Below, one piece after another: positions 1 through 35,465 of a stretch of 64,000 nucleotides of DNA; position 1 is the first letter of the stretch; each line of letters opens with the position of its first letter. Both the position numbers and the translations under genes were made by a program. This DNA comes from Escherichia coli (lineage in GTDB: Bacteria > Pseudomonadota > Gammaproteobacteria > Enterobacterales > Enterobacteriaceae), in the NCBI RefSeq assembly GCF_013315695.1, contig NZ_CP054353.1; one strand, 5' to 3'. Under the pieces are notes generated by a model. It saw only the letters and a list, made by a program, of their open reading frames with translations, was not told the DNA's origin and did no database searches.

Positions 1-309
1 TATCCGCAGGGGATTTTTCCGGTACTGGCAGCGTCCGGCGTTTGGGTAGCCTGTTTGCTGACATGGGCGGTAATTCCGGTAGCACTGGCTGCGTTAATTA
101 AGAATGGCCCGCTCTGGCAGGAGTTAAGGGCATCTTTGCTGAAGACAATTACCCGAAAAGAAAACGTATTTACCAGTTGGGTGATGCGATTGCTGATTGT
201 TGTAAGTCTCGCCTGGACGGGGTGGGCTATTACCCTGGTCTTTTATCTACTGACCGTTATTGCCTTCTGGATCACCCGTAATCAGATGGCGCAACAGGTA
301 GCAGCATGA
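1..309 (+). CDS. lysA: LysA-like lysis accessory membrane protein, 5' end outside window
   Basis: Open frame runs from position 1 without stop; hydrophobic segments; sits immediately upstream of lysB as in P2. Confidence 0.45.
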   Translation, partial: YPQGIFPVLAASGVWVACLLTWAVIPVALAALIKNGPLWQELRASLLKTITRKENVFTSWVMRLLIVVSLAWTGWAITLVFYLLTVIAFWITRNQMAQQVAA

Positions 310-734
310 ACCGGTTGCTGCTGGTTGTGCTGACGTTATTACTGGCGGCGCTGGGCTGGCAGACGTGGCGGCTGGCTGATGCCAGCCAGACCATCAGCAC
401 GCAGGCAGACGAGCTGCAGAGCAAAAGCCAGGCACTGGCAAAGAGCAATAGCCAGCTTATCAGCCTGTCCATTCTGACTGAAACCAATAACCGGGAGCAG
501 GCGCGGCTCTATGCCGAAGCAGAACAGACCAGCACGCTGCTGAGACAACGACAACACCGGATCGAGGAACTGAAACGTGAGAACGAGGATTTACGCCGCT
601 GGGCTGATACTCCTTTGCCTGCTGACATTATCCGGCTGCGGAAACGTCCGGCACTCACCGGAGGTATGGCTTACCGTCAGTGGTTGTCCGCGAGTGACGC
701 CGTGTCGGCTGGATCAGGCAACGCCGCGCACTAA
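306..734 (+). CDS. lysB: LysB, Rz-like inner-membrane spanin
   Basis: 142 aa, N-terminal TM helix then coiled-coil-like charged region; position between lysA and R. Confidence 0.55.
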   Translation: MNRLLLVVLTLLLAALGWQTWRLADASQTISTQADELQSKSQALAKSNSQLISLSILTETNNREQARLYAEAEQTSTLLRQRQHRIEELKRENEDLRRWADTPLPADIIRLRKRPALTGGMAYRQWLSASDAVSAGSGNAAH

Positions 735-867
735 CGGTGATCTGAACGCGTTGCTGGATGAAACGGAGGCCGCCTGGGCGGTCTGTGCAGACAAAGTGGA
801 CATGATTATTGCGTGTCAGGAGCGAAACAGTGAACAAACCACAATCCCTGCGCCACGCCCTCAATAA
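577..867 (+). CDS. lysC: LysC, Rz1-like outer-membrane lipoprotein spanin overlapping lysB out of frame
   Basis: 96 aa with lipobox LTLSGC; overlaps lysB 3' region in another frame as in Rz/Rz1 pairs. Confidence 0.5.
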   Translation: MRTRIYAAGLILLCLLTLSGCGNVRHSPEVWLTVSGCPRVTPCRLDQATPRTNGDLNALLDETEAAWAVCADKVDMIIACQERNSEQTTIPAPRPQ

Positions 868-1261
868 AGCGGTGCCTTATGTCCGCAATAACCCGGACAA
901 ACTGCATCTGTTTGTGGATAACGGTTCGCTGGTTGCCACGGGGGCCAGCTCCATGTCGTGGGAGTACCGTTACACACTGAACGCGGTGATTGAGGATTTC
1001 AGCGGCGACCAGAATCTGCTGATGGCCCCGGTTTTGCTGTGGCTGAGGGATAACCAGCCCGATGCCATCAATAACCCGGCGTTACGGGAAAAGCTATTCA
1101 CCTTTGAGGTGGATATTCTGCGCAACGATGTCTGTGATATCAGCCTGAACCTGCAACTGACGGAACGTGTGCTGGTCAGCACTGACGGCAGTGTGTCGAG
1201 CGTTGAAGCTATAGCGGAACCTGATGCACCTGAAGAAATGTGGACGGTGAAACGTGGCTGA
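830..1261 (+). CDS. R: Tail completion protein R
   Basis: Resemblance to P2 gpR as recalled; GTG start at 830 preceded by AGGAG (ORF track extends to 809). Confidence 0.65.
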   Translation: MNKPQSLRHALNKAVPYVRNNPDKLHLFVDNGSLVATGASSMSWEYRYTLNAVIEDFSGDQNLLMAPVLLWLRDNQPDAINNPALREKLFTFEVDILRNDVCDISLNLQLTERVLVSTDGSVSSVEAIAEPDAPEEMWTVKRG

Positions 1262-1700
1262 ACTGCAGAAGGTGGACGACTGGCTGAGTGCCTTGCTGGC
1301 GAATCTGGAACCAGCCTCGAGAAGCCGCATGATGCGCCAGCTGGCGCAGGAACTTCGCCGGACACAGCAGCAGAATATCAGGATGCAGCGCAACCCTGAC
1401 GGCAGCAGCTATGAACCGCGACGGGTAACAGCACGCAGTAAAAAAGGCCGTATCAAACGTCAGATGTTTGCAAAGCTGCGCACCACAAAATACCTGAAAA
1501 CTGCCGCCAGCACCGACTCTGCCAGCGTGCAGTTTGAAGGCAAGGTGCAGCGCATTGCCCGCGTTCACCATTACGGCCTGCGAGATCGCGTCAGTCGTAA
1601 GGGACCGGAGGTGCGTTACGCAGAGCGTCGCCTTCTGGGTGTAAATGATGATGTTGAGGCAATGACCCGCGACATGATTCTGCAATGGCTGGCGGGGTGA
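1254..1700 (+). CDS. S: Tail completion protein S
   Basis: 148 aa, position and size match P2 gpS; GTG start overlapping R stop. Confidence 0.65.
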   Translation: MAELQKVDDWLSALLANLEPASRSRMMRQLAQELRRTQQQNIRMQRNPDGSSYEPRRVTARSKKGRIKRQMFAKLRTTKYLKTAASTDSASVQFEGKVQRIARVHHYGLRDRVSRKGPEVRYAERRLLGVNDDVEAMTRDMILQWLAG

Positions 1701-1704
1701 TCTT

Positions 1705-1722
1705 TGTATCAGCACTGATACA
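1705..1722 (+). promoter_or_regulatory. Ogr-dependent late promoter element TGT-N12-ACA upstream of V
   Basis: tgtatcagcactgataca read directly; matches P2/P4 late-promoter activator site consensus. Confidence 0.45.
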
Positions 1723-1768
1723 AGTTGCAGCACTGCCGCCTTTCTTCCCCTGATGGCAACCTTTCCCT

Positions 1769-2347
1769 ATGAACGCACAATTAACCGAAATCATGCGCCT
1801 TATCACCAACCTAATCCGCACAGGGGTAGTCACCGAAGTGGACAGGGAAAACTGGCTTTGCCGGGTGAAAACGGGCGAGCTTGAAACCAACTGGATCAGC
1901 TGGCTGACGCTGCGTGCCGGGAATGCCCGTACATGGTGGCGACCATCGGAAGGTGAGCAGGTGGTGCTGCTGAGTCTGGGCGGCAATCTGGACACCGCCT
2001 TTGCGCTGCCCGCTGTCTATTCGAATCAGTTCGCACCACCGTCGACGTCGGCGGACGCCTGCGTGACAGAACATCCTGACGGTGGCTGGTTTGAATACGA
2101 ACCCGCCACCGGGCGCTGGTATGTCAGGGGCATCAAATCAATGGTCATTGAGGCTGCTGACAACATCACCATGAAAACCAGTGAGTTTGTACTGGAGGCT
2201 GACCGCACACGCATTAACAGCGAAGTGGTGATCAATGGTGGCGTTACCCAGGGCGGCGGAGCGATGAGTTCTAACGGGATCGTGGTTGATGCGCATCAGC
2301 ATACTGGCGTCCTGAAAGGCGGCGATACAACCGGAGGCCCGGTATGA
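1769..2347 (+). CDS. V: Baseplate assembly/spike protein V
   Basis: 192 aa; size and position match P2 gpV. Confidence 0.75.
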   Translation: MNAQLTEIMRLITNLIRTGVVTEVDRENWLCRVKTGELETNWISWLTLRAGNARTWWRPSEGEQVVLLSLGGNLDTAFALPAVYSNQFAPPSTSADACVTEHPDGGWFEYEPATGRWYVRGIKSMVIEAADNITMKTSEFVLEADRTRINSEVVINGGVTQGGGAMSSNGIVVDAHQHTGVLKGGDTTGGPV

Positions 2348-2703
2348 CGCTTTATAGCGGGATGAACAATACCAGCGGCAAAGTCATTACTGATATTGAT
2401 CATCTGCGCCAGTCGGTGCGGGACATTCTGCTGACACCGCAGGGTAGCCGTATTGCCCGCCGGGAATATGGTTCCCTGCTGTCGGCACTGATAGATCAGC
2501 CACAAAATCCGGCATTACGCCTGCAGGTCATGTCGGCAGTGTATGTGGCGCTGAGTCGCTGGGAGCCACGGTTGACGCTGGATTCCATCACCATCAACAG
2601 CAATTTTGACGGTTCAATGGTGGTGGAGCTGACCGGGCGGCGGAATAACGGTGTGCCTGTGTCCCTTTCCGTATCAACAGGAGCAGAGAATGGCAGTGAT
2701 TGA
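2344..2703 (+). CDS. W: Baseplate protein W (gp25-like)
   Basis: 119 aa; size and position match P2 gpW; start overlaps V stop. Confidence 0.75.
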   Translation: MTLYSGMNNTSGKVITDIDHLRQSVRDILLTPQGSRIARREYGSLLSALIDQPQNPALRLQVMSAVYVALSRWEPRLTLDSITINSNFDGSMVVELTGRRNNGVPVSLSVSTGAENGSD

Positions 2704-3598
2704 CCTTTCGCAGTTGCCTGCACCGCAGATTGTGGATGTGCCGGACTTTGAGACGCTGCTTGCCGAACGCAAGGCAGAATTTGTGGCGCTTCATCCGAAA
2801 GATGAACAGGAAGCAGTGATCCGCACGCTGGAACTGGAATCTGAACCCGCCACTAAATTGTTGCAGGAGAACGCTTACCGTGAGTTGCTTCTGCGCCAGC
2901 GCATTAACGAAGCCGCGCAGGCGGTGATGGTGGCTTACGCGATGGGCGGCGATCTTGACCAGCTCGCTGCCAACTACAACGTGACACGCCTGACGGTGAC
3001 GCCTGCTGATAATGATGCTGTGCCGCCCGTTGCAGCTGTGATGGAAAGCGATGAAGCGTTGCGCCTGCGTGTGCCTGCAGCCTTTGAAGGGCTTTCTGTT
3101 GCGGGGCCAACTGCAGCTTATGAATTTCATGCCCGAAGCGCCGACGGTCGGGTGGCGGATGCCAGTGCAACCAGCACGGCACCTGCAGAGGTGGTGCTGA
3201 CTGTCCTTAGCCGCGAAGGCGATGGAACTGCAGAAAAAGACCTGCTGGACGTGGTGGAAAAAGCTCTGAACAGTGAGAACGTCCGCCCGGTGGCTGACCG
3301 TCTTACGGTTCGCAGCGCAGAAATCATCCCGTATCGCGTGGAAGCCACCATTTTTCTCTATCCGGGACCGGAAGCAGAGCCGGTAATGGCAGCGGCAAAA
3401 GCCAGTCTGCAGAAGTACATTGCCAGCCAGACGCGTCTTGGTCGGGATATTCGCCGTAGCGCCATCTTTGCTGCTCTGCATGTTGAGGGTGTTCAACGTG
3501 TGGAACTGGCTTCTCCGCTGGCGGATGTGGTCCTGAACAAAACACAGGCGGCATCATGTACGCAGTGGAGCGTAACCAACGGAGGAACGGATGAATAG
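2690..3598 (+). CDS. J: Baseplate wedge protein J
   Basis: 302 aa from ATG at 2690 with AGGAG upstream (track ORF starts 2651); P2 gpJ-like. Confidence 0.75.
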   Translation: MAVIDLSQLPAPQIVDVPDFETLLAERKAEFVALHPKDEQEAVIRTLELESEPATKLLQENAYRELLLRQRINEAAQAVMVAYAMGGDLDQLAANYNVTRLTVTPADNDAVPPVAAVMESDEALRLRVPAAFEGLSVAGPTAAYEFHARSADGRVADASATSTAPAEVVLTVLSREGDGTAEKDLLDVVEKALNSENVRPVADRLTVRSAEIIPYRVEATIFLYPGPEAEPVMAAAKASLQKYIASQTRLGRDIRRSAIFAALHVEGVQRVELASPLADVVLNKTQAASCTQWSVTNGGTDE

Positions 3599-4196
3599 TC
3601 TGCTGCCACCGGGTTCAACTTCACTGGAGCGCCGACTGGCGCAAACCTGTAGCGGGATTTCTGATTTGCAGGTGCCGCTGCGTGACTTGTGGAATCCGGC
3701 TACCTGTCCGGTCAGCTTCCTGCCTTATCTCGCCTGGGCGTTCTCTGTGGATCGCTGGGACGAGGGCTGGACAGAAAGCGTCAAACGCCAGGTAGTGAAG
3801 GATGCTTTTTATATTCATCAGCATAAAGGAACCACCAGTGCCGTACGGCGAGTGGTGGAACCGTTCGGATTCCTGATCCGCATTATTGAGTGGTGGCAGA
3901 CCGGAGAAACACCGGGCACGTTTCGCCTGGATATCGGCGTGCAGGACCAGGGCATCACTGAAGATACCTATCTGGAACTTGAGCGACTGATAAGCGATGC
4001 CAAACCATGTAGCCGCCACATGATCGGCATGTCCATCAATCTGCAGACCAGCGGCCCGCATTGGGTGGGAGCCGCCAGCTATCTTGGCGAAGAAATCACG
4101 ATCTATCCGTATATCAACGAAACGATTATTTCCGGTGGCACCGCGCATGAAGGCGGGGCGGTCCATGTTATTGACACAATGAGAGTGAATCCATGA
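3591..4196 (+). CDS. I: Baseplate protein I
   Basis: 201 aa; position between J and H. Confidence 0.7.
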   Translation: MNSLLPPGSTSLERRLAQTCSGISDLQVPLRDLWNPATCPVSFLPYLAWAFSVDRWDEGWTESVKRQVVKDAFYIHQHKGTTSAVRRVVEPFGFLIRIIEWWQTGETPGTFRLDIGVQDQGITEDTYLELERLISDAKPCSRHMIGMSINLQTSGPHWVGAASYLGEEITIYPYINETIISGGTAHEGGAVHVIDTMRVNP

Positions 4197-5314
4197 GCAC
4201 AAAATTTTATACCCTGCTGACGGATATTGGCGCGGCGAAACTTGCCAGCGCCGCCGCGCTCGGTGTGCCGCTAAAAATTACCCATATGGCGGTGGGCGAT
4301 GGCGGTGGAGTATTGCCAACGCCGGACGCAAAGCAGACGGCACTGGTAAATGAGAAACGCCGGGCTGCGCTGAATATGCTTTATATCGACCCGCAGAACA
4401 GCAGCCAGATTATTGCCGAACAGGTGATCCCTGAAAACGAGGGCGGTTGGTGGATACGTGAAGTGGGCTTGTTTGATGAGTCCGGGGCATTGATTGCCGT
4501 GGGCAACTGCCCGGAAAGCTATAAGCCGCAACTGGCTGAAGGTAGCGGGCGCACTCAGACCGTGCGCATGGTGCTGATTACCAGCAGCACGGACAATATC
4601 ACCCTGAAAATCGACCCTGCTGTAGTGCTGGCAACCCGCAAGTATGTGGATGACAAGGCACTGGAGCTGAAGGTGTACGCAGATGATCAGATGGCAAAAC
4701 ATCTTGCCGCACCGGACCCGCATTCACAGTACGCGCCAAAAGCCAGCCCGACATTTACCGGAACCCCCAAAGCGCCAACGCCAGCGGCGGGGAATAATAC
4801 CACGCAGGTTGCGACCACTGCGTTTGTACAGGCGGCACTGACGGCCCTTATTAATGGTGCGCCAGCCACGCTGGACACGCTGAAAGAAATAGCCGCAGCC
4901 ATTAACAATGATCCGAATTTCAGTACCACCATTAACAATGCGCTGGCACTAAAAGCGCCACTGTCGAGTCCGGCACTCACCGGAACGCCAACAGCACCTA
5001 CTGCGGCACAGTCGGTCAACAATACACAGATTGCCACTACAGCTTTTGTGAAATCAGCGATTGCAGCAATGGTGGGTTCTGCACCCGCGGCACTGGATAC
5101 ACTGAACGAACTGGCGGCGGCACTGGGGAATGATCCGAACTTTGCCACGACAATGCTTAATGCGCTGGCAGGTAAACAACCGCTGGACAATACGCTGACT
5201 AATTTGAGTGGAAAGGATGTAGCTGGTCTTCTCGCATACCTTGGTTTGGGAGAAGGCGGCAAAACTGGGTGTGCCTGTTCCAGGGGCCTTCAGATACCGG
5301 ACAACAGGCTTTGA
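4193..5314 (+). CDS. H: Tail fibre protein H, conserved N-terminal/shaft part; ends 19 codons after the inversion crossover site
   Basis: N-terminus MSTKFYTLLTDIGAAKLA...MAVGDGGG and repeats TGTPxAPT / ALDTLNELAAALGNDPNF resemble P2 gpH; 373 aa versus about 669 aa for P2 H. Confidence 0.7.
   Translation: MSTKFYTLLTDIGAAKLASAAALGVPLKITHMAVGDGGGVLPTPDAKQTALVNEKRRAALNMLYIDPQNSSQIIAEQVIPENEGGWWIREVGLFDESGALIAVGNCPESYKPQLAEGSGRTQTVRMVLITSSTDNITLKIDPAVVLATRKYVDDKALELKVYADDQMAKHLAAPDPHSQYAPKASPTFTGTPKAPTPAAGNNTTQVATTAFVQAALTALINGAPATLDTLKEIAAAINNDPNFSTTINNALALKAPLSSPALTGTPTAPTAAQSVNNTQIATTAFVKSAIAAMVGSAPAALDTLNELAAALGNDPNFATTMLNALAGKQPLDNTLTNLSGKDVAGLLAYLGLGEGGKTGCACSRGLQIPDNRL
5229..5254. repeat. 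Left crossover site of invertible segment (hix/gix-like 26 bp)
   Basis: ttctcgcatacc-tt-ggtttgggagaa; half-sites inverted; lies inside H coding frame (LAYLGLGE). Confidence 0.6.
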
Positions 5315-5668
5315 AATGCAAGTGGTGATGGATGGATGAAATTACCCGGAACTGGAAAATCCTGCAAAATGGTCGTGGTGATTTACGCCGAGTTTATCGA
5401 CGCTGGGATGAGAATTACATTGATTAGGCATCGTGTTTTATTGAGTAAGGCCGGACTGCGGAAAAGCACCGTCATCCTGGTGATGGCGGTGCGACTTCAA
5501 AAGCGCTGGGGGAACTGGCGATGATCTTCAGAAGGCCCAACGTTAACAGGGGGCTTTATGCCGCTGCTTACAGAACGTCATCCAACCAGCGACACGGTAT
5601 CGATGAACGACAGTTGGTGGGCTGTTGGCGGGAGTAATTTTATCCAGGGTGATTTATATTGAACGAAT

Positions 5669-5914
5669 ATGTTTATAGCTGCAATGGATAACGCCGTATT
5701 TTCCCGAGGATACCACGATTGCGGGGAATATATAAATCATAGGGATGGGATTGGTGAGACGCGGGAATATATTTCTGCATCAACTCAAAATATTTGCAGT
5801 GGGAGTTTCGGTATTGAACCGCCACAAGGACGCTCCGGTACATCTAAGGCTGGAGATGATTTGCTGTTCTGCGTGGAGAAAATCATGGGAATATGTGTCA
5901 GAAGAACTTATTGA
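5669..5914 (+). pseudogene. Tail fibre assembly (tfa)-like gene fragment, apparently frameshifted
   Basis: Translation MDNAVF...DGIGETREYISAS... shares protein-level similarity with a minus-strand copy near 6480-6680; ORF breaks after 81 aa and continues in another frame. Confidence 0.3.
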
Positions 5915-6436
5915 AATTACTGAATCAGAAAACACCGGAAACCAAGATGCCAACGAAATACAGAACAGGCGACTATCCCGAAAATACAGCCGCTATCGGT
6001 CGCCATGAACGATAAATGAACTGGCGCAATATAATTGACAGATACTGGATTATCTGGACGGTGGAACTGGTTGATTCCTCCAGCACAGCGCCAGTCATTG
6101 ATTGATGGCAATGGCCTCCGGCAGTCTGGCCAGATGAAACATCCGGCGCGGGACTGTAAACTGTTGCCGTCACCGAAACAATGTAATCCAGCGCAGCGTT
6201 AAGTTGGTTGACGCTGGTGACGGCAACAGATACCGTCCGGCCGGATGTCATCAGTTGAACTGCCTGAGGCGCAGGCCATTTGCATCAATCTGGTGACTGG
6301 GAGGAATCAACCAGTTCAGTGCGTCCAGATAATCCAGCCACAAATTACCCATTTTCGCCAGTTCCCATTTATCAGACGACGTTAGCGGCTTTACCGGGTG
6401 GTTGTATTTTCATGATATTCGCCTGGCTTGATTTAA

Positions 6437-6625
6437 TTAGTAGCTCTGTCTTTCTGATTCAGTTATAGACGATTTCACTTCGATGGTGGGTGGATGATTT
6501 TTAAATCCACAGAACGGCAAATTCATAACCAGCCTTACGGATTTTGAGCGTTGTGGCAGGTTCTGGAATAAACTCACTGCAAGATATTTTTGATGCAGAA
6601 ATATATTCCCGCGTCTCACCATCAT
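6437..6625 (-). pseudogene. Second tfa-like copy in opposite orientation, frameshifted
   Basis: 30-bp perfect inverted repeat with 5753-5782; conserved peptide ...YDGETREYISAS... lies in a different frame from the track ORF here. Confidence 0.3.
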
Positions 6626-6676
6626 AGTTATAGACGGTCAATATATCCACGCCTTCGTGGTAATGCCTTGCGCTAT

Positions 6677-7129
6677 TTAAACACGGCGTCGTTCATTAAT
6701 GCAGCCCTGACGATAAGTTAAACCAACAGCCCACGGGTTGTAATTCGCCGATACCGATGTCGCTGGTGAATGACGTTCGGTGATGGGATCAGAATTAAAG
6801 CCGGTTAACCCCCTGGGCCTTCGTGCAGTCATCACGAATTGTCGCCCAGCGCCCATTCCTCTTTGAGCCATCACCCAGAATGAGTACAGGATGACGGTGC
6901 TTTTCCAGCATTTTGGGGAAAGGGATGCTAAAAACACGTCCTCATTGTTACCGCGATAATGTCGGCGTAACCGCGAATAACGACCGCATAAATCAGGTAA
7001 TTTATTTGTTGGATAATTGCCAGTTCCATCCATCAAAATGCCGCACCGTTGCAAAAGCCAGCCTGTCCGGTATCTGAAGGCCATGGAACAGTCACACCAT
7101 CCCGTTTTGCAGAGCTTCTCCCAAACCAA
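6677..7129 (-). other. 150-codon open frame reading inward from right crossover site; status uncertain
   Basis: Long stop-free frame, +1 relative to the H continuation frame; W/R/C-rich translation. Confidence 0.2.
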
Positions 7130-7141
7130 CGTTTATGAAAA
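7116..7141. repeat. Right crossover site of invertible segment
   Basis: ttctcccaaacc-aa-cgtttatgaaaa; inverted relative to left site (core TT versus AA). Confidence 0.6.
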
Positions 7142-7196
7142 TGCAGAGATAATGGCTAACTGGCATCATCCCCGGTTTTTATTCAGGGGGATGATC

Positions 7197-7763
7197 ATGC
7201 TTATTGGCTATGTACGCGTGTCAACAAATGACCAGAACACCGATTTGCAACGTAATGCACTGAACTGCGCGGGATGTGAGCGGATTTTTGAGGATAAAAT
7301 CAGTGGCACTAAGTCCGACAGACCAGGGTTGAAAAAACTGCTCAGGACACTATCGGCAGGAGACACGCTGGTTGTCTGGAAGCTGGACAGGTTGGGGCGC
7401 AGTATGCGGCATCTTGTTACGCTGATAGAAGAGTTGCGTCAGCGAGGCGTGAATTTCCGAAGCCTGACTGACAGTATTGATACCAGCACCCCAATGGGCC
7501 GTTTCTTTTTTCATGTCATGGGTGCCCTGGCTGAAATGGAACGCGAACTGATAGTTGAACGTACCAGGGCAGGGCTGGCTGCAGCTCGTGCCAAAGGCAG
7601 AGTAGGTGGACGCCGTCCTAAGTTGACCACCGAACAGTGGGCACAGATTGGGCGTTTACTCGAGGCCGGAGAATCAAGACAGCGTATTGCACTGATTTTT
7701 GATGTAGGCGTTTCTACCATTTATAGAAAATTTCCGGCAAATAAGAGCAATGAATCTCCCTGA
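7197..7763 (+). CDS. pin: Serine DNA invertase, Pin/Gin/Cin/Hin family
   Basis: MLIGYVRVSTNDQNTDLQRNAL... with catalytic Ser in VRVST and C-terminal HTH; track ORF 7017-7763 over-extends upstream. Confidence 0.9.
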   Translation: MLIGYVRVSTNDQNTDLQRNALNCAGCERIFEDKISGTKSDRPGLKKLLRTLSAGDTLVVWKLDRLGRSMRHLVTLIEELRQRGVNFRSLTDSIDTSTPMGRFFFHVMGALAEMERELIVERTRAGLAAARAKGRVGGRRPKLTTEQWAQIGRLLEAGESRQRIALIFDVGVSTIYRKFPANKSNESP

Positions 7764-7810
7764 ATCAGCATTATTTTGATTATCCCTGCAGCAGACAAAT
7801 ACCGTCATTT

Positions 7811-7828
7811 TGTGTGAATAACGGTACA
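7811..7828 (+). promoter_or_regulatory. Ogr-dependent late promoter element TGT-N12-ACA upstream of FI
   Basis: tgtgtgaataacggtaca about 75 bp upstream of FI start. Confidence 0.45.
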
Positions 7829-7904
7829 ACTGCGCTTAGCTGTTTGTCAGGCACAATCACTTCAACATAGGGCGAAGCCTAATCCAATCAGGAGGTTCGC
7901 CACT

Positions 7905-9077
7905 ATGGCTCAGGATTACCACCATGGGGTGCGCGTTGTTGAAGTCAACGAAGGCACCCGATCCATTACCACGGTGAGCACCGCCATCGTGGGTATGGTC
8001 TGCACGGGCGACGATGCCGATGCAAAAATGTTTCCTCTTAATAAACCCGTGCTGATCACTGATGTGCTGACTGCCAGCGGTAAAGCGGGTGAGTCCGGCA
8101 CGCTGGCCCGTTCGCTGGACGCCATCGCTGACCAGGCAAAACCCGTGACCGTTGTTGTGCGTGTGCCGCAGGGTGAAACGGAAGAAGAAACCACAACCAA
8201 TATCATCGGCGCAGTGACCGCCGAGGGTAAAAAAACAGGCATGAAAGCCCTGCTATCTGCCCAGTCACAGCTCGGCGTTAAACCGCGCATTCTCGGCGTG
8301 CCAGGTCACGATAACAAAGCCGTTGCTACTGAGTTGCTGAGTGTGGCGCAAAGCCTGCGTGGGTTTGCCTACCTGTCAGCATATGGCTGCAAGACGGTAC
8401 AGGAGGCGATCACTTACCGTGAAAACTTCAGCCAGCGCGAAGGGATGCTGATCTGGCCTGACTTTACTGGCTGGGACACGGTGCTGAACGCCGAAGCAAT
8501 GGCATATGCCACCGCCCGTGCGCTTGGTCTGCGTGCCAAAATTGATGAGCAGACCGGGTGGCACAAAAGCCTGTCCAACGTGGGCGTGAACGGTGTCACC
8601 GGAATTTCTGCAGATGTGTTCTGGGATCTGCAGGACCCGGCAACCGATGCAGGTCTGCTGAACCAGAACGACGTCACCACGCTTGTGCGTAAAGACGGTT
8701 TCCGCTTCTGGGGTTCCCGCTGCCTGAGTGATAACCCGCTCTTTGCCTTCGAAAACTACACCCGCACGGCGCAGGTGCTGATGGACACGATGGCAGAAGC
8801 ACACATGTGGGCGGTGGATAAACCGCTTAACCCGTCGCTGGCCCGCGACATTATCGAAGGTATCCGCGCCAAAATGCGCAACCTGGTCAGTCAGGGCTAT
8901 CTCATTGGTGGTGATTGCTGGCTGGACGAGTCGGTGAACGACAAAGACACGCTTAAAGCCGGAAAACTCACCATCGACTACGACTACACGCCAGTGCCGC
9001 CACTTGAAAATCTGATGCTGCGCCAGCGCATCACCGATCAGTACCTGGTGAATTTCGCCAGCCAGGTCAGCGCGTAA
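7905..9077 (+). CDS. FI: Contractile tail sheath protein FI
   Basis: 390 aa; AGGAGG RBS; size and position match P2 FI. Confidence 0.85.
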
Positions 9078-9086
9078 GGGGACAAC

Positions 9087-9602
9087 ATGGCTTTACCACG
9101 TAAATTAAAACATCTGAACTTGTTTAACGACGGGAACAACTGGCAGGGGATCGTTGAGTCGCTGACGCTGCCGAAATTCACCCGCAAATATGAGAAGTAT
9201 CGCGGCGGCGGTATGCCGGGGGCGGTGGATGTGGATCTGGGACTGGATGACAGTGCACTGGATACAGAATTTTCCATTGGTGGTACTGAACTGCTGCTGT
9301 TTAAGCAGATGGGCAAATCCACGGTGGATGGCATCCAGCTGCGCTTTACCGGCTCTATCCAGCGTGACGATACCGGGGAAGTGCAGGCCGTGGAGCTTGT
9401 CGTGCGTGGACGTCACAAAGAAGTGGATTCCGGCGAGTGGAAGACGGGCGAAAGCAACACCACCAAAGTGACCAGTACCAACAGCTACGCGAAGCTGACC
9501 ATCAATGGTGAGGTGCTCTATGAAGTGGACCTTATCAACATGGTGGAAATTGTGGACGGTGTGGACCTGATGGAAGCGCACCGCAACGCCCTCGGCCTCT
9601 GA
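9087..9602 (+). CDS. FII: Tail tube protein FII
   Basis: 171 aa immediately after sheath gene. Confidence 0.85.
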   Translation: MALPRKLKHLNLFNDGNNWQGIVESLTLPKFTRKYEKYRGGGMPGAVDVDLGLDDSALDTEFSIGGTELLLFKQMGKSTVDGIQLRFTGSIQRDDTGEVQAVELVVRGRHKEVDSGEWKTGESNTTKVTSTNSYAKLTINGEVLYEVDLINMVEIVDGVDLMEAHRNALGL

Positions 9603-9656
9603 TGTATCTGAACGGCGCGGAATGCCGCGCCAGAACCTAATTTACAGGACAACAAA

Positions 9657-9959
9657 ATGAGCGATAAACAGACTGAAAAGACCATTCAACTGGATACCCC
9701 CATCATGCGCGGTAAAACAGAAATTACCGAAATTGTGTTGCGTAAACCGCAGTCTGGTGCGCTGCGCGGCACACGCCTGCAGGCCATTATGGATATGGAT
9801 GTGAACGCGATGATGACCGTGATCCCCCGCATCTCCAGTCCGGCACTGACTGCACAGGAAATCGCAGAGATGGACCCGGCAGATCTCACAGCCATGTCGG
9901 TTGAGGTTGTCACTTTTTTGTTGAAGAAGTCGGTGCTTGCCGGTTTACCGACAGCCTGA
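9657..9959 (+). CDS. E: Tail assembly chaperone E
   Basis: 100 aa upstream of tape measure; contains slippery TTTTTTG at 9914-9920. Confidence 0.7.
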   Translation: MSDKQTEKTIQLDTPIMRGKTEITEIVLRKPQSGALRGTRLQAIMDMDVNAMMTVIPRISSPALTAQEIAEMDPADLTAMSVEVVTFLLKKSVLAGLPTA

Positions 9960-10093
9960 CGGTTGACGATCTGGTGGCAGATATCGCCACCATTTTTCAC
10001 TGGCCGCCATCCGTTACTGACGTTATGCCGCTGACCGAAGTGCTGGAATGGCGGTATAAAGCGATTCAGAGAAGCAGGGCCAACGATGAGTGA
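9657..10093 (+). CDS. E+E' fusion chaperone made by programmed -1 frameshift
   Basis: -1 frame after TTTTTTG stays open to TGA at 10091-10093, overlapping T start; conserved feature of tail chaperone genes. Confidence 0.5.
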
Positions 10094-13000
10094 TAACAAC
10101 CTGCGCCTGCAGGTCATTCTTAATGCGGTTGACAAACTCACCCGCCCATTCCGTGCTGCACAGGCCAGTTCGAAAGAGCTGGCTGGCGCAATCAGAAACT
10201 CCCGTGACGCATTAAAGCAACTCAATCAGGCGGGTAACAGCCTGGAAAAATTTCGCAAGCTGCAGGCTGATAACAAGAAGTTAGGTGACAGGCTGAACTA
10301 TGCCAGACAGAAGGCTAATTTGCTTAGCTCTGAGCTGGAGGCGATGGAACAACCATCACAACGGCACCTTGTGGCTTTAGGTCGGCAAACGCTGGCAGTC
10401 CAACGCCTGGAAGAACAACAAAAATATTTGCAGAAGCAAACGGCGCTTGTGCGTGCAGAACTGTACCGGGCGGGAATTTCTGCGAAAGATGATGCGGGAG
10501 CAACTGCCCGTTTAGCCCGTGAAACATCACGTTATAACCAGGAATTGTCGAAACAGGAGGCGCGGCTGAAGCGACTGGGTGAAGCTCAGCGCAGGATGAA
10601 TGCGGCGCGTGCCAGTTATGCCCGTTCGCTGGAGGTGCGTGATCGTATTGCAGGAGCCGGAGCCACCACCACGGCTGCAGGGCTGGCAATGGGAACACCA
10701 GTGATGGCGGCAGTAAAAAGCTATACCAGCATGGAAGATGCCATGAAAGGTGTGGCAAAGCAGGTCAATGGTCTGCGTGACGATAATGGCAACCGCACTG
10801 CACGTTTTTATGAAATGCAGGATGCCATCAAGGCTGCCAGCGAACAGTTGCCGATGGAAAACGGTGCGGTGGACTTCGCTGCACTGGTTGAAGGTGGTGC
10901 GCGCATGAACGTCGCAAACCCTGACGACAGCTGGGAAGACCAGAAACGTGACCTGCTGGCCTTCGCCAGTACGGCAGCAAAGGCGGCAACAGCCTTTGAG
11001 CTGCCAGCGGATGAACTGTCAGAAAGTCTGGGGAAAATCGCCCAGCTCTACAAAATACCTACCCGCAATATTGAACAGCTCGGCGATGCGCTGAACTATC
11101 TGGATGATAACGCCATGTCGAAAGGGGCGGACATCATTGATGTCATGCAACGTCTGGGCGGTGTGGCTGATCGTCTGGATTATCGTAAAGCGGCGGCGCT
11201 GGGTTCCACCTTTCTGACACTGGGCGCTGCGCCAGAGGTTGCAGCCAGTGCAGCAAACGCGATGGTGCGTGAATTGTCCATTGCCACCATGCAAAGCAAG
11301 AGTTTCTTTGAAGGGATGAATCTGCTGAAACTCAATCCTGAAGTGATTGAAAAGCAGATGACGAAGGATGCGATGGGAACTATCCAGCGTGTGCTGGAGA
11401 AGGTGAACGCACTGCCGCAGGACAAGCGTCTGTCTGCCATGACCATGTTGTTTGGTAAAGAGTTTGGTGATGACGCGGCGAAACTGGCAAACAACCTTCC
11501 GGAACTGCAGCGCCAGCTAAAACTGACTGCGGGCAATGATGCGCTCGGTTCCATGCAGAAAGAATCCGACATCAACAAAGACTCACTTTCTGCGCAGTGG
11601 TTGCTGGTCAAAACCGGAGCGCAGAACACCTTCAGCAGCCTGGGCGAAACGCTGCGCCAGCCGCTGATGGATATTCTGTACACGGTAAAAAGCATCACGG
11701 GGGCGTTGCGCCGCTGGGTGGAAGCTAACCCGGAACTGACAGGCACACTGATGAAAGTAGCGGCTGTTGTGGCTGCGGTTACCGTAGGCCTCGGCACCTT
11801 AGCGGTGGCGCTGGCTGCAGTGCTGGGGCCGCTGGCAGTCATCCGTTTGGGATTCTCTGTGCTGGGTATCAAAACGTTACCTTCCGTTACGGCAGCAGTA
11901 ACACGAACCAGCAGCGCGTTGTCCTGGCTGGCTGGCGCTCCACTGGCACTGCTGCGACGCGGGCTTGCTTCATCGGGCAACGCAGCGGGTTTACTTACTG
12001 CGCCGTTGTCGTCTTTGCGCCGCATGGCATCACTGACGGGGAATGTCCTGAAAACTGTAGCAGGTGTGCCGGTTGCACTGTTGCGGTCTGGATTATCCGG
12101 TTTACGTGCTGTTGCTGTGATGTTTATGAATCCACTGGCAGCACTACGCGGTGGACTGGCTGCCGCAGGCGCGGTGCTGCGAGTACTGGCATCCGGTCCG
12201 CTGGCGATGCTGCGCGTTGCCCTGTATGCCGTATCTGGTCTGTTAGGTGCTCTGCTCAGTCCGATAGGTCTTGTGGTTACTGCACTGGCGGGCGTGGCGC
12301 TGGTTGTCTGGAAATACTGGCAACCCATCACCGCATTTCTCGCTGGTGTGGTGGAAGGATTCAACGCGGCGGCAGGTCCCATCAGTGCAGCATTCGAACC
12401 GCTTAAGCCTGTGTTTCAGTGGATTGGCGATAAAGTGCAGGCGTTGTGGGGCTGGTTTACTGATCTGCTGACGCCCGTTAAGTCGACCTCTGCCGAACTG
12501 CAGAGTGCAGCGGCAATGGGGCGGCGATTCGGAGAGGCACTGGCGGAAGGGCTGAATATGGTCATGCATCCGCTGGACTCCCTGAAATCCGGCGTTTCCT
12601 GGTTGCTGGAGAAACTTGGCATTGTCAGTAAAGAGGCCGCAAAGGCAAAACTGCCGGAAAGCATGACGCGTCAGCAACCTGCGACGGTGAATGCAGACGG
12701 TAAAGTGATGATGCCATCGGGTGGTTTTCCGTCATGGGGATATGGCTTTGCGGGGATGTATGACAGCGGCGGGTATATCCCGCGCGGGCAGTTTGGCATC
12801 GTCGGTGAAAACGGGCCGGAAATTGTTAACGGCCCGGCAAATGTGACCAGCCGGAGAAATACAGCTGCACTGGCTGCCGTTGTTGCCGGAATGATGGGCG
12901 TTGCTGCCGCGCCAGCAGAGCTTCCACCGTTGCACCCTTTGGCACTTCCCGCGAAAGGTGGAGAAGCAATTGTGAGTCGCGCAGCCACTGTGCCGCTCGT

Positions 13001-13163
13001 TCAACGGATTGAGGCACCGACGCAGATCATCATTCAGACGCAGCCAGGACAAAGTGCGCAGGATATTGCGCGGGAGGTGGCACGCCAGCTTGATGAACGT
13101 GAACGCAGGCTGAAGGCAAAAGCCAGGAGTAACTACAGCGATCAGGGGGGATACGACGCATGA
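10086..13163 (+). CDS. T: Tail tape measure protein T
   Basis: 1025 aa; coiled-coil N-terminus, repeated hydrophobic PLAxLRxGL motifs; position after E/E'. Confidence 0.85.
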   Translation: MSDNNLRLQVILNAVDKLTRPFRAAQASSKELAGAIRNSRDALKQLNQAGNSLEKFRKLQADNKKLGDRLNYARQKANLLSSELEAMEQPSQRHLVALGRQTLAVQRLEEQQKYLQKQTALVRAELYRAGISAKDDAGATARLARETSRYNQELSKQEARLKRLGEAQRRMNAARASYARSLEVRDRIAGAGATTTAAGLAMGTPVMAAVKSYTSMEDAMKGVAKQVNGLRDDNGNRTARFYEMQDAIKAASEQLPMENGAVDFAALVEGGARMNVANPDDSWEDQKRDLLAFASTAAKAATAFELPADELSESLGKIAQLYKIPTRNIEQLGDALNYLDDNAMSKGADIIDVMQRLGGVADRLDYRKAAALGSTFLTLGAAPEVAASAANAMVRELSIATMQSKSFFEGMNLLKLNPEVIEKQMTKDAMGTIQRVLEKVNALPQDKRLSAMTMLFGKEFGDDAAKLANNLPELQRQLKLTAGNDALGSMQKESDINKDSLSAQWLLVKTGAQNTFSSLGETLRQPLMDILYTVKSITGALRRWVEANPELTGTLMKVAAVVAAVTVGLGTLAVALAAVLGPLAVIRLGFSVLGIKTLPSVTAAVTRTSSALSWLAGAPLALLRRGLASSGNAAGLLTAPLSSLRRMASLTGNVLKTVAGVPVALLRSGLSGLRAVAVMFMNPLAALRGGLAAAGAVLRVLASGPLAMLRVALYAVSGLLGALLSPIGLVVTALAGVALVVWKYWQPITAFLAGVVEGFNAAAGPISAAFEPLKPVFQWIGDKVQALWGWFTDLLTPVKSTSAELQSAAAMGRRFGEALAEGLNMVMHPLDSLKSGVSWLLEKLGIVSKEAAKAKLPESMTRQQPATVNADGKVMMPSGGFPSWGYGFAGMYDSGGYIPRGQFGIVGENGPEIVNGPANVTSRRNTAALAAVVAGMMGVAAAPAELPPLHPLALPAKGGEAIVSRAATVPLVQRIEAPTQIIIQTQPGQSAQDIAREVARQLDERERRLKAKARSNYSDQGGYDA

Positions 13164-13645
13164 TGATGGTGCTGGGATTGTACGTGTTTATGCTGCGCAC
13201 CGTTCCGTATCAGGAACTGCAGTATCAACGCAGCTGGCGACATGCGGCAAACAGTCGGGTAAACCGACGTCCGTCCACGCAGTTTCTGGGACCGGAAAAC
13301 GACATGCTGACGCTTTCCGGTGTTCTTATGCCGGAGATAACAGGCGGCAGGCTGTCGTTGCTGGCACTGGAGCAGATGGCAGAACAGGGGAAAGCATGGC
13401 CCCTGATTGAAGGCAGCGGCACGATTTACGGCATGTATGTGATTGAGGGACTGAATCAGACTAAAACGGAGTTTTTCCGCGACGGTATGCCGCGCCGGAT
13501 TGAGTTCACCCTGTCGCTCAAACGAGTGGATGAATCCCTGTCCGATATGTTCGGTGATCTCAGTGCGCAACTGAATAATCTGCAGGACACGGCAACGTCT
13601 GCCTTAAGCGATATCAGTAAAACGGTGGGAGGGCTGCTGTCGTGA
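13160..13645 (+). CDS. U: Tail protein U
   Basis: 161 aa; position and size match P2 gpU. Confidence 0.75.
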   Translation: MMMVLGLYVFMLRTVPYQELQYQRSWRHAANSRVNRRPSTQFLGPENDMLTLSGVLMPEITGGRLSLLALEQMAEQGKAWPLIEGSGTIYGMYVIEGLNQTKTEFFRDGMPRRIEFTLSLKRVDESLSDMFGDLSAQLNNLQDTATSALSDISKTVGGLLS

Positions 13646-14742
13646 ATTTCAGCGCTGAACTGCTTAACACAGGCAACAAAACTCCCGCATTCAGCATCAG
13701 TATTGAGGGCAGGGATATCACCACTGTGCTGGATAACCGCCTGATGAGTTTGACGCTGACGGATAACCGGGGCTTTGAAGCGGACCAGCTTGATCTGGAG
13801 CTGGATGACGCTGACGGAAAAATCGTGCTGCCGCGCCGTGGTGCGGTCATTACGCTGGCGCTGGGCTGGAAGGGGCAGCCGCTTTTCCCTAAAGGGGCAT
13901 TCACAGTGGACGAGATTGAACACACTGGCGCACCGGACCGCCTGACTATCCGGGCGCGAAGTGCTGATTTTCGGGAAACGCTGAATACCCGCCGTGAAAA
14001 ATCGTGGCATAAGACCACCGTCGGGGAAGTGGTGAAGGAAATAGCCGCGCGGCACAAGCTGAAGATGGCACTGGGTAAAGACCTGTCGGATAAGCCCGTG
14101 GAGCATATAGACCAGACTAATGAGAGTGACGGCAGTTTTCTGATGCGGCTGGCGCGACAGTACGGTGCCATCGCGTCGGTGAAAAATGGCAATCTGTTAT
14201 TCATCCGGCAGGGGCAGTGCAAAAGCGCCACTGGTAAACCTCTGCCAGTGATCACTATCACACGCAAGGACGGTGACAGTCACCGATTTATCCTGGCAGA
14301 TCGCGGAGCCTACACGGGCGTAATTGCCAGCTGGTTGCATACCCGCGAACCTGCGAAGAAAGAAAGCACCACGGTGAAGCGTAAGCGCAGAACTAAGAAG
14401 CAGAAGAAAGAGCCAGAAGCGAAGCAGGGCGATTACCTGGTGGGTACGGATGAAAACGTGCTGGTACTTAATCGCACTTATGCCAACCGGAGCAACGCCG
14501 AACGAGCGGCGAAAATGCAGTGGGAACGCCTGCAACGCGGCGTTGCGTCATTTTCTCTACAACTGGCAGAAGGGCGGGCAGATCTCTACACGGAAATGCC
14601 TGTGAAGGTCAGTGGTTTTAAACAGCCGATAGATGATGCGGAATGGACCATTACGACTCTGACACATACCGTCAGCCCGGATAACGGTTTTACAACCAGT
14701 ATTGAACTTGAAGTGAAAATTAATGATCTTGAAATGGAATAA
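13642..14742 (+). CDS. D: Tail/baseplate hub protein D
   Basis: 366 aa; GTG start overlapping U stop; position matches P2 gpD. Confidence 0.75.
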   Translation: MNFSAELLNTGNKTPAFSISIEGRDITTVLDNRLMSLTLTDNRGFEADQLDLELDDADGKIVLPRRGAVITLALGWKGQPLFPKGAFTVDEIEHTGAPDRLTIRARSADFRETLNTRREKSWHKTTVGEVVKEIAARHKLKMALGKDLSDKPVEHIDQTNESDGSFLMRLARQYGAIASVKNGNLLFIRQGQCKSATGKPLPVITITRKDGDSHRFILADRGAYTGVIASWLHTREPAKKESTTVKRKRRTKKQKKEPEAKQGDYLVGTDENVLVLNRTYANRSNAERAAKMQWERLQRGVASFSLQLAEGRADLYTEMPVKVSGFKQPIDDAEWTITTLTHTVSPDNGFTTSIELEVKINDLEME

Positions 14743-14810
14743 ATGGTTCTCAATATTGATATTTTGTGTATCATTGCATTGATTATGATAGCAAAGGTAG
14801 GGATCTGGAT

Positions 14811-15029
14811 ATGATGAATTGTCCAAAGTGTGGTCATGCGGCGCACACAAGGAGCAGTTTTCAAGTAACGGAAAGCACCAAAGAACGTTACTGCCAGTGC
14901 CAAAATATTAACTGCGGGAGCACTTTTGTTACCCATGAAACAGTGGTCCGGTTTATTGTGACACCTGCAGTGATTGCCACAGCCCCTCCACATCCATTGC
15001 CAGATGGTCAGGGCCATATGAATTTTTAA
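14811..15029 (+). CDS. ogr: Ogr zinc-finger late-gene transcriptional activator
   Basis: MMNCPKCGHAAH...CQCQNINCGSTF with four-Cys zinc finger; about 72 aa from ATG at 14811. Confidence 0.85.
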   Translation: MMNCPKCGHAAHTRSSFQVTESTKERYCQCQNINCGSTFVTHETVVRFIVTPAVIATAPPHPLPDGQGHMNF

Positions 15030-15036
15030 GAAAGAG

Positions 15037-15064
15037 AACCTGCTACGGCAGGTTTTATTTTTCT
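15037..15064 (+). terminator. Rho-independent terminator after ogr
   Basis: aacctgctacggcaggtt hairpin followed by T-rich run. Confidence 0.6.
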
Positions 15065-15269
15065 GTAAGCCTATCCATTTAAAGTATAAATGAATATTTA
15101 CATTGATGATTATCATTAGAGTTGCGTTAAAGACTACACCTGCCATTTGTACAATGTTTTAAAGTAATGGCTGCAATTAAATGCAGCCATTATTTATAAT
15201 GATTAATATATATAAAATATCAGACACTGAATAATAACGTACTTTATGTTCAAGGGTCGATATAATCAC

Positions 15270-16346
15270 TTAATAGAATGTTTCTACTAAAGCGTTTACA
15301 TGTTCTCTAGCCTCGCGATAACGCTCTCTTACAACGTTGATAATTTCACCGTTTGGCATTTCATAATGAGTTTGAGCAGGAAGTTTGAAAAGAGGAATTC
15401 CCAAACTTGCAGAAACTTTCCCTGAAGTATGAAAATCTTTAACTTCAGAAAGATAGGCCGCCTCCCATTCATTTAAGTTATTGATTTCACGATATCGCTC
15501 CGTGAATAGTTCTGGGAAGTTCTGATATTGTGTAAAAGCAAAAGCACAAAGGGATTCTTTGATTGAATCATAAGCTCTGGCAACACCAAGATTAGACGTA
15601 AAGTTATTGAAAACAAAGCGATCTAACTTAGGTAATGTAAGATTATTATTCACAACTTGGCTATGAAAAGTGACAAACTTTTCTGCATAGGTTTGTGCAG
15701 CAGAAGAGGGATAATGGCCATAAAGAAGCATCATTATTCCTTTCATCCCTTCTAATGAACTGTAATCAGCCATCATAGGGACGACCAGTCTATCTGAAGA
15801 TAGTAGAGCCATTTGGGTGTAGATAGAAAAACTTGGATTACAGTCAATAAAGACAACCATATCATCGTAATCATCAATATCATGTTCTAGAGTACATAGT
15901 CGACGAAATGCTGTCATATACTCTTTCCATGCGAACCTGTTAGCTGGACTGATAACTGCATAGTTCAGTGCAAGAGTAAGGGACTCGAGGAATGAATCAC
16001 CGGCGATGAGAAACAAATTATCGCTGATTTCATCATTATATTGGTTTACTGCTACTTTGAAAGAACGTCGAATACTGGTGAAATTTGAATGGCCATCTAA
16101 AAGCCAGTCCAGAAACCCTACGACATTTTTGCGTGTTCGTGAAGATTGTAGCTCTTGATTAGTATTGTACCCACGATCACCTCCTCCAAGCAGGTATTGA
16201 GAAATGTTTGCTTGCGGACACAAATCTATTACTAGTACCTGTGTGCTGGGATTTTCTTCTGCATACTGTGCAGCAATGTTGAAACCAAGTGTTGTTTTTC
16301 CAACACCGCCTTTGTTGTTATACATTGCATAAATCTTAACTGCCAT
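15270..16346 (-). CDS. Orphan ParA/MinD-like P-loop ATPase with uncharacterised C-terminal extension; prophage cargo gene of unknown function
   Basis: 358 aa; deviant Walker A KGGVGKTT at residues 12-19, A' motif VLVIDLCPQAN, Walker B-like MVVFIDCNPS; AT-rich; opposite strand to phage late genes; no ParB-like neighbour. Confidence 0.75.
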   Translation of the reverse strand: MAVKIYAMYNNKGGVGKTTLGFNIAAQYAEENPSTQVLVIDLCPQANISQYLLGGGDRGYNTNQELQSSRTRKNVVGFLDWLLDGHSNFTSIRRSFKVAVNQYNDEISDNLFLIAGDSFLESLTLALNYAVISPANRFAWKEYMTAFRRLCTLEHDIDDYDDMVVFIDCNPSFSIYTQMALLSSDRLVVPMMADYSSLEGMKGIMMLLYGHYPSSAAQTYAEKFVTFHSQVVNNNLTLPKLDRFVFNNFTSNLGVARAYDSIKESLCAFAFTQYQNFPELFTERYREINNLNEWEAAYLSEVKDFHTSGKVSASLGIPLFKLPAQTHYEMPNGEIINVVRERYREAREHVNALVETFY

Positions 16347-16641
16347 GTGTATTTCACCCGAGGTTGAATAAAAGCCTACTACATCGCTATTTTACCATTC
16401 AATTTTATCATTAGCAGATTCCAATGAAGAAGATACTTCTGGTTTATCTAATGAAAATTGTGAAGTAAAAGTAGGATACTTCATTCTTCTGCAGTGAGGG
16501 GGGCGTGGATAACATTATAATTTCTTGTTGTATAGCCTTTTCGGGAAAGAGCAGACAAGATTTACATAAAACTCTGTCGCCATTTTGCCGCCACTTCCAA
16601 AGAAAAAGGGGCTACGCTTTCACGTAACCCCTTGATTTATT

Positions 16642-17004
16642 TGGTGGAGCTGGCGGGAGTTGAACCCGCGTCCGAAATTCCTACATCCTCGGTACTACAT
16701 GCTTAGTCAGTCTTTACATTCGCTTGCCAGCTGCGGACGGACACGCCACTAACAAACTAGCCTGATTAAGTTTTAACGCTTCAACCCCAGGCAGGGCTTC
16801 CACGCGATCTCTTTTGGGTTTGACCTCTCTTGATCCCCGTCCTAAGAGCGGAGGCTAGGGAGAGAGGGCTCTAAGCAGGTTATTAAGCTGCTAAAGCGTA
16901 GTTTTCGTCGTTTGCGACTATTTTTTGCGGCTTTTTACGAGGCCAACCGCCCCTCGGCATGCACCTTGGGTTTCGCAAATCCCGTCGAATCCAGAATCAG
17001 CCCC
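16642..17004 (-). ncRNA. ssrA: tmRNA (SsrA)
   Basis: Reverse complement reads GGGGCTGATTCTGGATTCGACGGG...GGACGCGGGTTCAACTCCCGCCAGCTCCACCA; tag-coding region present. Confidence 0.95.
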
Positions 17005-20887: not shown

Positions 20888-22480
<1,593 letters not shown>

Positions 22481-22488
22481 ATATCTGA

Positions 22489-22516
22489 TGGCCGACGCGA
22501 AGTCGGCCATTTTTTT
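22489..22516 (+). terminator. Rho-independent terminator after grpE
   Basis: tggccgacgcgaagtcggcca hairpin plus TTTTTTT; the T run overlaps the stop codon of the convergent acidic ORF. Confidence 0.7.
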
Positions 22517-23156: not shown

Positions 23157-23240
23157 TATTGCATTGTGAAGTAAAAGGAAGGAATTGATGGAATCCTAAA
23201 AGGCGGCGATAAGAAAGGCGAACCGGAGCTCGCCACTGTA

Positions 23241-35446: not shown

Positions 35447-35465
35447 AGTGTTGCCTTTTTGTTAT

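Follow-up and report, generated by a model that had tools for sequence, protein, structure and literature searches.

The late arm of a P2/186-type prophage at the ssrA gene of an Escherichia coli genome, and the probable chimeric consensus of its invertible tail-fibre segment

The late arm and its junction with ssrA

We analysed 64,000 nucleotides of an Escherichia coli genome (NCBI RefSeq assembly GCF_013315695.1, contig NZ_CP054353.1), hereafter the window. Its first 16641 positions are the late arm (lysis, tail and ogr genes) of a P2/186-type prophage of the Peduoviridae, as gene content and order confirm, and this arm abuts the 3' end of an intact ssrA gene for transfer-messenger RNA (tmRNA). 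Within the arm, a serine DNA invertase gene follows a 1.9-kb tail-fibre segment whose apparent damage is almost certainly an artefact of assembly or consensus building from a segment that flips, judging by its base pattern, and not gene decay. We consider the combined reading (a P2/186-type arm at ssrA, a tail-fibre switch and an artefactual consensus) highly probable. The genes of the arm outside the fibre region are as follows.

1..309, + strand: lysA-like lysis gene, 3' part, cut by the start of the window (phrog_162 lysis, E=5e-33)
306..734, + strand: lysB, Rz-like spanin (phrog_89, E=3e-45)
619..867, + strand: lysC, Rz1-like, overlapping lysB (position from relatives with an identical LysB: PF23793 LysC, and the annotation of MS1665)
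830..1261, + strand: gpR, tail completion protein (PF06891, E=6e-47)
1254..1700, + strand: gpS, virion morphogenesis protein (PF05069, E=6e-42)
1769..2347, + strand: gpV, baseplate spike (PF04717 and an Apex motif)
2344..2703, + strand: gpW, baseplate wedge (PF04965)
2690..3598, + strand: gpJ, baseplate protein (PF04865)
3591..4196, + strand: gpI (PF09684, E=1.5e-54)
7905..9077, + strand: gpFI, tail sheath (PF04984, PF17482, PF22671)
9087..9602, + strand: gpFII, tail tube (PF04985, E=1e-59)
9657..10093, + strand: gpE, tail chaperone (9657-9959), with the E' frame (9974-10093) (PF10109)
10086..13163, + strand: gpT, tape measure protein of 1025 amino acids, intact (PF10145)
13160..13645, + strand: gpU (PF06995, E=3e-44)
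13642..14742, + strand: gpD, baseplate hub (PF05954)
14811..15029, + strand: ogr, zinc-finger late-gene activator (PF04606, E=9e-21)
15035..15056, no strand assigned: two-way terminator-like hairpin between ogr and the cargo gene

These genes all lie on the + strand in P2 order, with Pfam and PHROGs matches at E-values of 1e-13 to 1e-65, and their lengths match those of their relatives. They make up the P2-type late cluster lysA-B-C, R, S, V, W, J, I, H, (G), FI, FII, E/E', T, U and D. From lysB to ogr, 17 of 17 late genes are full length, H being counted for its constant part only. The S-V gap measures 68 bp and contains no cargo. Near-identical relatives carry a full-length counterpart of the truncated lysA with the LysA domain (PF28015), and the lysC frame is open over 577..867. 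A candidate slippery heptamer, TTTTTTG (T6G), can be read directly from the sequence at 9914-9920 inside E, and GpE (PF06528) is called at the equivalent place in L016, a near-isogenic contig of GCA_012381015.2. Against the NCBIfam model PRK09678, ogr scores 111 bits, slightly below the cut-off of 116.

The arm is thus the right, late-gene arm of a temperate P2/186-type myovirus. At 96-97% DNA identity it matches the Peduoviridae phages 500465-1 (Wadgaonvirus) and Cartapus (Elveevirus), its nearest named relatives, and many predicted Klebsiella and E. coli prophages. Among complete E. coli RefSeq genomes the best identity is 97-98%, and about 130 of 5426 hold at least 80% of window positions 7200-17004, an interval that spans the phage-ssrA junction. 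Identical gpT proteins occur on 19 public contigs, and an exact 80-mer had no match among the GTDB representative genomes. In a public assembly collection, the identical LysB protein is found in 4799 blocks and the terminase in 35569; both are very widespread.

The junction with the host gene comprises three features.

16606..16633, - strand: phage-supplied intrinsic terminator directly past the ssrA 3' end (12-bp stem, then a T run)
16642..16686, no strand assigned: 45-bp attachment (att) core, equal to the ssrA 3' end and identical to the phage attachment site (attP) of Cartapus
16642..17004, - strand: ssrA (tmRNA), intact (ARAGORN and Rfam)

ARAGORN finds a single tmRNA with the tag ANDENYALAA, and the Rfam tmRNA match is full length (295.8 bits, E=1e-120). 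Phage DNA extends to 16641, positions 16642-16686 are the shared att core (TGGTGGAGCTGGCGGGAGTTGAACCCGCGTCCGAAATTCCTACAT) and 16687-17004 are host ssrA; smpB (17219-17701) and the usual E. coli neighbours follow. Two comparisons place these boundaries. In 5425 matching E. coli genomes, common sequence begins only at about 16637-16642 and runs rightwards, that is, it reaches as far as the ssrA 3' end. Between ogr and 16686 the window is colinear with the genome of the free phage Cartapus, which beyond that point departs into its own RES/integrase side; this identifies the att core as the last 45 bp of ssrA. In Cartapus the core sits between the cargo and int genes, and an identical 45-bp core is present in Salmonella phage SEN8. 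The window holds one copy of the core; in the prophage of MS1665 (NZ_CP097721) it recurs at the integrase end, about 36 kb away.

A tyrosine integrase, its int gene lying outside the window, would have linked the phage to the 45 bp at the 3' end of ssrA. The gene is intact after integration because attP carries its own 45-bp copy and a terminator; phage DNA thus restores both the gene end and its terminator. The terminator has a folding energy of -24.1 kcal/mol (z=-5.05), and its sequence is shared with Cartapus attP. The hairpin that now terminates ssrA is phage DNA, and the host ssrA terminator has moved to the far end of the prophage.

The initial annotation had proposed the ogr-proximal arm of a P2-type prophage at the ssrA 3' end. 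The intact tmRNA, the genes in P2 order and the Cartapus attP core bear this out. Its description of the junction as the ogr-proximal end names the correct, right arm, but ogr is not adjacent to ssrA: a 1.6-kb cargo region of 36% guanine-cytosine (GC) content lies between them. It was also correct that this site holds CP4-57 in K-12, as K-12 EMG2 carries intA, yfjH and alpA of CP4-57 at the same position, with intA 204 bp from ssrA.

This shared site raises the alternative of a CP4-57-type island that merely acquired P2 tail genes. In relatives, this locus does contain P4-family integrases, placed immediately past the P2-like prophage. Among the open reading frames (ORFs) of window positions 1-17004, though, we found neither a P4-family integrase nor a CP4-57 gene, and the DNA abutting ssrA is colinear with Cartapus attP, running from core to terminator to the cargo/ogr side. 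We regard such an island as exceedingly improbable and retain the reading of a P2/186-type arm.

A P4-family integrase lies just past the far att copy of the P2-like prophage in MS1665 (L005, 5398-6837; 48% identical to K-12 IntA) and in one other genome (L040, 12417-13658). A P2-like prophage and a P4-family/CP4-57-type element can thus lie in tandem at ssrA. Given this arrangement in relatives, finding a P2-like prophage here does not imply that it replaces CP4-57.

The invertible tail-fibre segment

Between gpI and gpFI, where P2-type phages carry their tail-fibre genes, the window contains the parts of a tail-fibre switch.

4193..5255, + strand: tail fibre H, constant part, running into the left crossover site (PF12571, E=7e-65)
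5229..5255, no strand assigned: left invertase crossover site, TTCTCGCATACCTTGGTTTGGGAGAAG (inverted repeat with 7115-7141; aligned to the L016 sites)
5229..7141, no strand assigned: invertible fibre-tip segment, apparently a chimeric consensus in the window (bounded by 26/27-bp crossover sites)
7115..7141, no strand assigned: right crossover site, reverse complement TTTTCATAAACGTTGGTTTGGGAGAAG (inverted repeat with 5229-5255; aligned to the L016 sites)
7197..7763, + strand: serine DNA invertase of the Gin/Cin/Pin/Hin type, 188 amino acids (PF00239, E=2e-53; PF02796 HTH_7)

The window sites agree with the 26-bp crossover sites of prophage fibre switches given in PMC4134206. Such a segment is expected to encode, in mirrored arrangement, a pair of alternative C-termini for H and a pair of tail-fibre assembly genes. 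The serine invertase would flip the segment between the 26/27-bp sites, and the constant part of H would be fused in each orientation to a distinct receptor-binding C-terminus, paired with the cognate assembly chaperone.

The deposited segment does not read this way. The mechanically called H ORF extends to 5314, inside the garbled segment, and from 5314 to 7197 there are only short ORFs on either strand; no ORF in the segment exceeds 145 amino acids. The mirrored fibre alternatives cannot be read in the window's own consensus and become readable only when a near-isogenic segment is substituted. Placed behind the constant H of the window, the intact segment of L016 continues H in frame in both orientations, giving 473 amino acids in one and 509 in the other. 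Since H is in frame either way, we regard the late arm as intact, with what is probably a working host-range switch.

Two explanations for the garbled sequence were weighed. In the first, both orientations would have been present in the sequenced culture in roughly equal amounts, and an assembler or polisher would have merged them into one chimeric, ORF-less consensus. In the second, the fibre tip is truly decayed in the cell, through mutation, hypermutation or gene conversion between the mirrored halves. Real decay would fit the lack of any ORF above 145 amino acids and a divergence of about 27% from relatives. The position of that divergence does not fit. The flanks are 99.98-100% identical to public contigs, with 1 mismatch in 5139 bp on the left (the L016 comparison) and 0-2 in 8-16 kb on the right, and the fall in identity to about 73% is confined to the interval exactly between the crossover sites. 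Inside each site, the very first base already belongs to the mosaic.

Comparison with intact segments points to a mixture of both orientations. Over its whole length, the window segment can be aligned with the intact segment of strain 23CRST024 (1913 versus 1917 bp) at 73% identity, and with the reverse complement of that segment at 70%; the intact segment and its own reverse complement are only 49.5% identical. The 1913 bases were then assigned in three-way alignments according to the orientation of the intact segment that they match.

L016: both orientations 762, forward only 572, inverted only 505, neither 74
23CRST024: both orientations 765, forward only 573, inverted only 504, neither 71

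One or other orientation of a near-isogenic intact segment therefore explains 96% of the segment bases, and those explained by a single orientation split 53:47, a mosaic at the level of single bases. Non-forward bases match the true reverse complement in 88% of cases, versus 20-39% for shuffled, reversed or complemented controls. Consistent with this pattern, the window segment is 0.63 identical to its own reverse complement (0.47-0.55 in 11 intact relatives), and it contains many inverted repeats symmetric about position ~6185, of which the intact relative has none.

The fine structure of the mosaic also argues against decay. The source orientation changes about 190 times in 1.9 kb, including where the two halves are unrelated (a gp53-like tip against a Collar tip); gene conversion cannot switch source every ~10 bases where the halves are non-homologous. 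The substitution spectrum is flat across its 12 classes, with transversions as frequent as transitions, and there are 10-20 indel positions per 100 bp. A flat spectrum with such dense indels shows that the pattern is not evolutionary divergence. Merging reads of both orientations would produce it, whereas neither mutation nor recombination does. The same features ruled out hypermutation, whether deaminase-like or of the diversity-generating retroelement (DGR) kind, as a cause. We consider true decay of the fibre tip highly improbable.

Where prophages that are identical or nearly so were assembled from short reads, the contigs break precisely at the crossover sites. Contigs L017 and L019 start at window position 7115 and contigs L018 and L020 at 7131, and contigs L023-L026 end about 1040 nucleotides into H. 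These breaks are an independent sign of two orientations. In the EC958 genome, about 50% of reads were reported in each orientation for such prophage segments (PMC4134206). From the mosaic we infer that the switch was probably active in the culture that was sequenced.

The initial annotation had described the late arm as largely intact apart from the fibre-tip region. The genes are indeed full length and the tip does lack long ORFs, but almost certainly not through biological damage. On the reading of an artefactual consensus, the fibre genes should not be called pseudogenes, and the segment gives no reason to class the prophage as defective. Instead, its 1.9 kb of garbled sequence may be taken as the signature of an actively flipping, mis-polished segment. 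Applied elsewhere, the same test, which asks whether each base is explained by either orientation of an intact reference, would flag further artefacts of this type.

Completeness, cargo and the rest of the window

The window begins within lysA, and the genes for integrase, immunity, replication, capsid and packaging lie outside it, as does the cos site. The initial annotation was thus right that completeness cannot be judged from the window. Judging by relatives, the prophage is likely to be complete. Contigs 99.9% identical to window positions 1-5228 carry a terminase gene (P, cut at the locus edge in L021) together with O, N, M, L, X, holin and lysozyme genes, and the loci that reach further left (L022, L024 and L025) also carry the portal gene Q. 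Contig L019, from an identical prophage, ends inside the att core at window position 16671, as expected if the core is repeated. Following exact protein matches from contig to contig led to near-identical late arms and to capsid genes, and in no case to an int end on the same contig.

Several points weigh against our account. The artefact is read from the pattern of the sequence, and 74 bases of the segment (4%) match neither orientation, most of them at indels. The window does not reach the left arm, the integrase or the second att copy. In addition, GCA_029942985.1 (L022/L028) has a late arm 99.87% identical to window positions 1-5228 joined to a different int/CI module (integrase of 350 amino acids, CI of 188) and extra cargo. 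It adjoins TetR/MFS host genes, apparently at another chromosomal site. The same late arm thus occurs with another int module, so the left arm of this prophage cannot be deduced with certainty from late-arm identity. We attribute this case to modular recombination between P2-like phages with different integration modules.

L022/L028 was considered as a proxy for the left arm of the window and rejected for its different int/CI module beside TetR/MFS host genes.

The opposing view is that the prophage is a defective remnant, either a tail-gene island or a tailocin-like domesticated cluster without integrase, replication and capsid modules. In its favour, the window opens inside lysA and shows nothing further left, exchange between P2-like arms is free (as the different int module illustrates), and in one relative, L037, an internal deletion has brought U into direct contact with the terminase gene. 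Against it, 17 of 17 late genes, ogr, the att core and the ssrA terminator are intact. Moreover, the 99.9%-identical contigs carry terminase, scaffold, capsid and lysis genes, some with the portal gene as well; complete relatives at ssrA measure about 36 kb; and an identical short-read contig ends inside the core as if it were repeated. We therefore think a remnant unlikely and favour a complete prophage.

The region between ogr and the att core carries a single cargo gene.

15270..16346, - strand: solitary ATPase of the ParA/MinD superfamily, 358 amino acids (PF13614, PF01656; phrog_164)

The gene occupies a 1.6-kb slot of 36% GC content, which we interpret as a moron slot between ogr and att. 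In 500465-1 and Cartapus the same slot holds a gene for a 160-amino-acid protein; one further relative has a DUF5677 protein among its features, possibly in this slot. P2-like phages have been reported to carry a hotspot located between CI and the tail genes (bioRxiv 10.1101/2024.10.15.618418).

The ParA-like protein has the Walker A motif KGGVGKT, and its sequence likeness to classical ParA is limited to the N-terminal P-loop. A confident structural model (predicted local distance difference test score, pLDDT, of 87) shows a Soj/ParA fold, with a template modelling (TM) score of ~0.5. No PADLOC-DB defence model matched at E<=0.01, and searches with PADLOC, NCBIfam, PDB sequences and Foldseek returned only generic ParA/Soj/MinD similarity. 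Conservation of the family is unusually high, with about 60% identity between members from Proteobacteria (enterobacteria among them) and Cyanobacteria, and its distribution is patchy. It recurs in unrelated temperate phages as a single-gene moron on the opposite strand.

Family homologues were located at 6001-7077 in loci L045-L048 and at 6001-7080 in L049-L051. In a lambdoid Morganella prophage, a family member is a lone opposite-strand gene between lysis and terminase genes. In Pseudomonas syringae, a member is a single gene beside a resolvase in an uncharacterised locus.

The ATPase may provide an undescribed single-gene prophage accessory function, such as superinfection exclusion or defence, or manipulation of host DNA segregation; we put this forward tentatively, as a doubtful possibility, and an accessory or exclusion role is a guess. 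The gene is nevertheless a reasonable candidate for a phage accessory gene screen.

Two further features were observed elsewhere in the window. A 770-bp insertion (22471-23240) between grpE and yfjD, missing from MS1665 and L016, contains a 213-amino-acid ORF (22515-23156, - strand) that has no NCBIfam match and is annotated as DUF6630 on the 99.99%-identical contig L017. Further right, an IS4-family transposase gene (36297-37643, - strand) within 34286-40773 lies at the join between pheA with the Phe leader (35468-35593) and eno-pyrG-mazG-relA-rlmD-barA; CsrB is encoded beyond these, at 55263-55622. The order differs from that of K-12, which we take to be pheA followed by raiA/bamD/clpB, with eno about 150 kb on the other side of ssrA. 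Either a large inversion bounded by IS4 and taking in the ssrA/prophage region, or an assembly misjoin at a copy of the insertion sequence, may explain the difference.

Comparison with known systems

A P2-like prophage at ssrA is an already known and common arrangement, found for Fels-2, SopEΦ, 500465-1 and Cartapus. The Salmonella prophages Fels-2 and SopEΦ are P2-like temperate phages with a 186-type integrase that attach at ssrA (PMC3448106). They differ from the window element in host genus and cargo (sopE in SopEΦ), and are likened to it here by description.

Phages 500465-1 and Cartapus are 96.5-96.7% identical to the window at the DNA level over 73-82% of positions 1-17004. They share its late gene order, invertase-linked fibre switch and ssrA att core, and the 500465-1 record includes the same host flank (ssrA-smpB-ratA...). 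They differ in carrying other fibre-tip alleles and the 160-amino-acid cargo protein in place of the ParA-like ATPase. Cartapus also has no lysA, and an additional gene separates its S and V.

The MS1665 prophage is 97% identical to the window element and has the same site, ParA-like cargo and gene order. It is complete (~36 kb, flanked by the 45-bp repeat) and encodes int, CI, cox/apl-like, cII, fil, dam, A, a hotspot, Q, P, O, N, M, L and lysis genes. A tyrosine integrase and a CI/Apl-type switch are present in both MS1665 and Cartapus. Closest of all are contigs of GCA_012381015.2, ERZ24115487 and SRR28299565, at 99.8-100% identity with the same site, cargo and order. In such near-identical contigs the invertible segment is either intact (L016) or the point at which the assembly breaks, whereas in the window it appears as a chimeric consensus.

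Relatives L006, L008 and L011 carry an AIPR protein as cargo between S and V. The A-Q interval of L006-L038 holds reverse transcriptases, TIR proteins, SIR2 with a ParA-like ATPase, a KAP NTPase, AAA_15/21 proteins and HIRAN/HipA.

CP4-57 of K-12 also uses the ssrA 3' end and also leaves ssrA intact. It is an unrelated element, with the P4-family intA directly next to ssrA, a gene that positions 1-17004 of the window do not contain.

The fibre switch resembles those of Gin (Mu), Cin (P1), Pin (e14) and Hin. Like them, it has a serine invertase with resolvase and HTH_7 domains and inverted 26-bp sites, and it would be organised as a constant fibre N-terminus with alternative C-termini and matching chaperones. 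The window switch differs from these systems in lying within a P2-type genome, at the Z/fun position; to our knowledge, classical P2 has no invertase.

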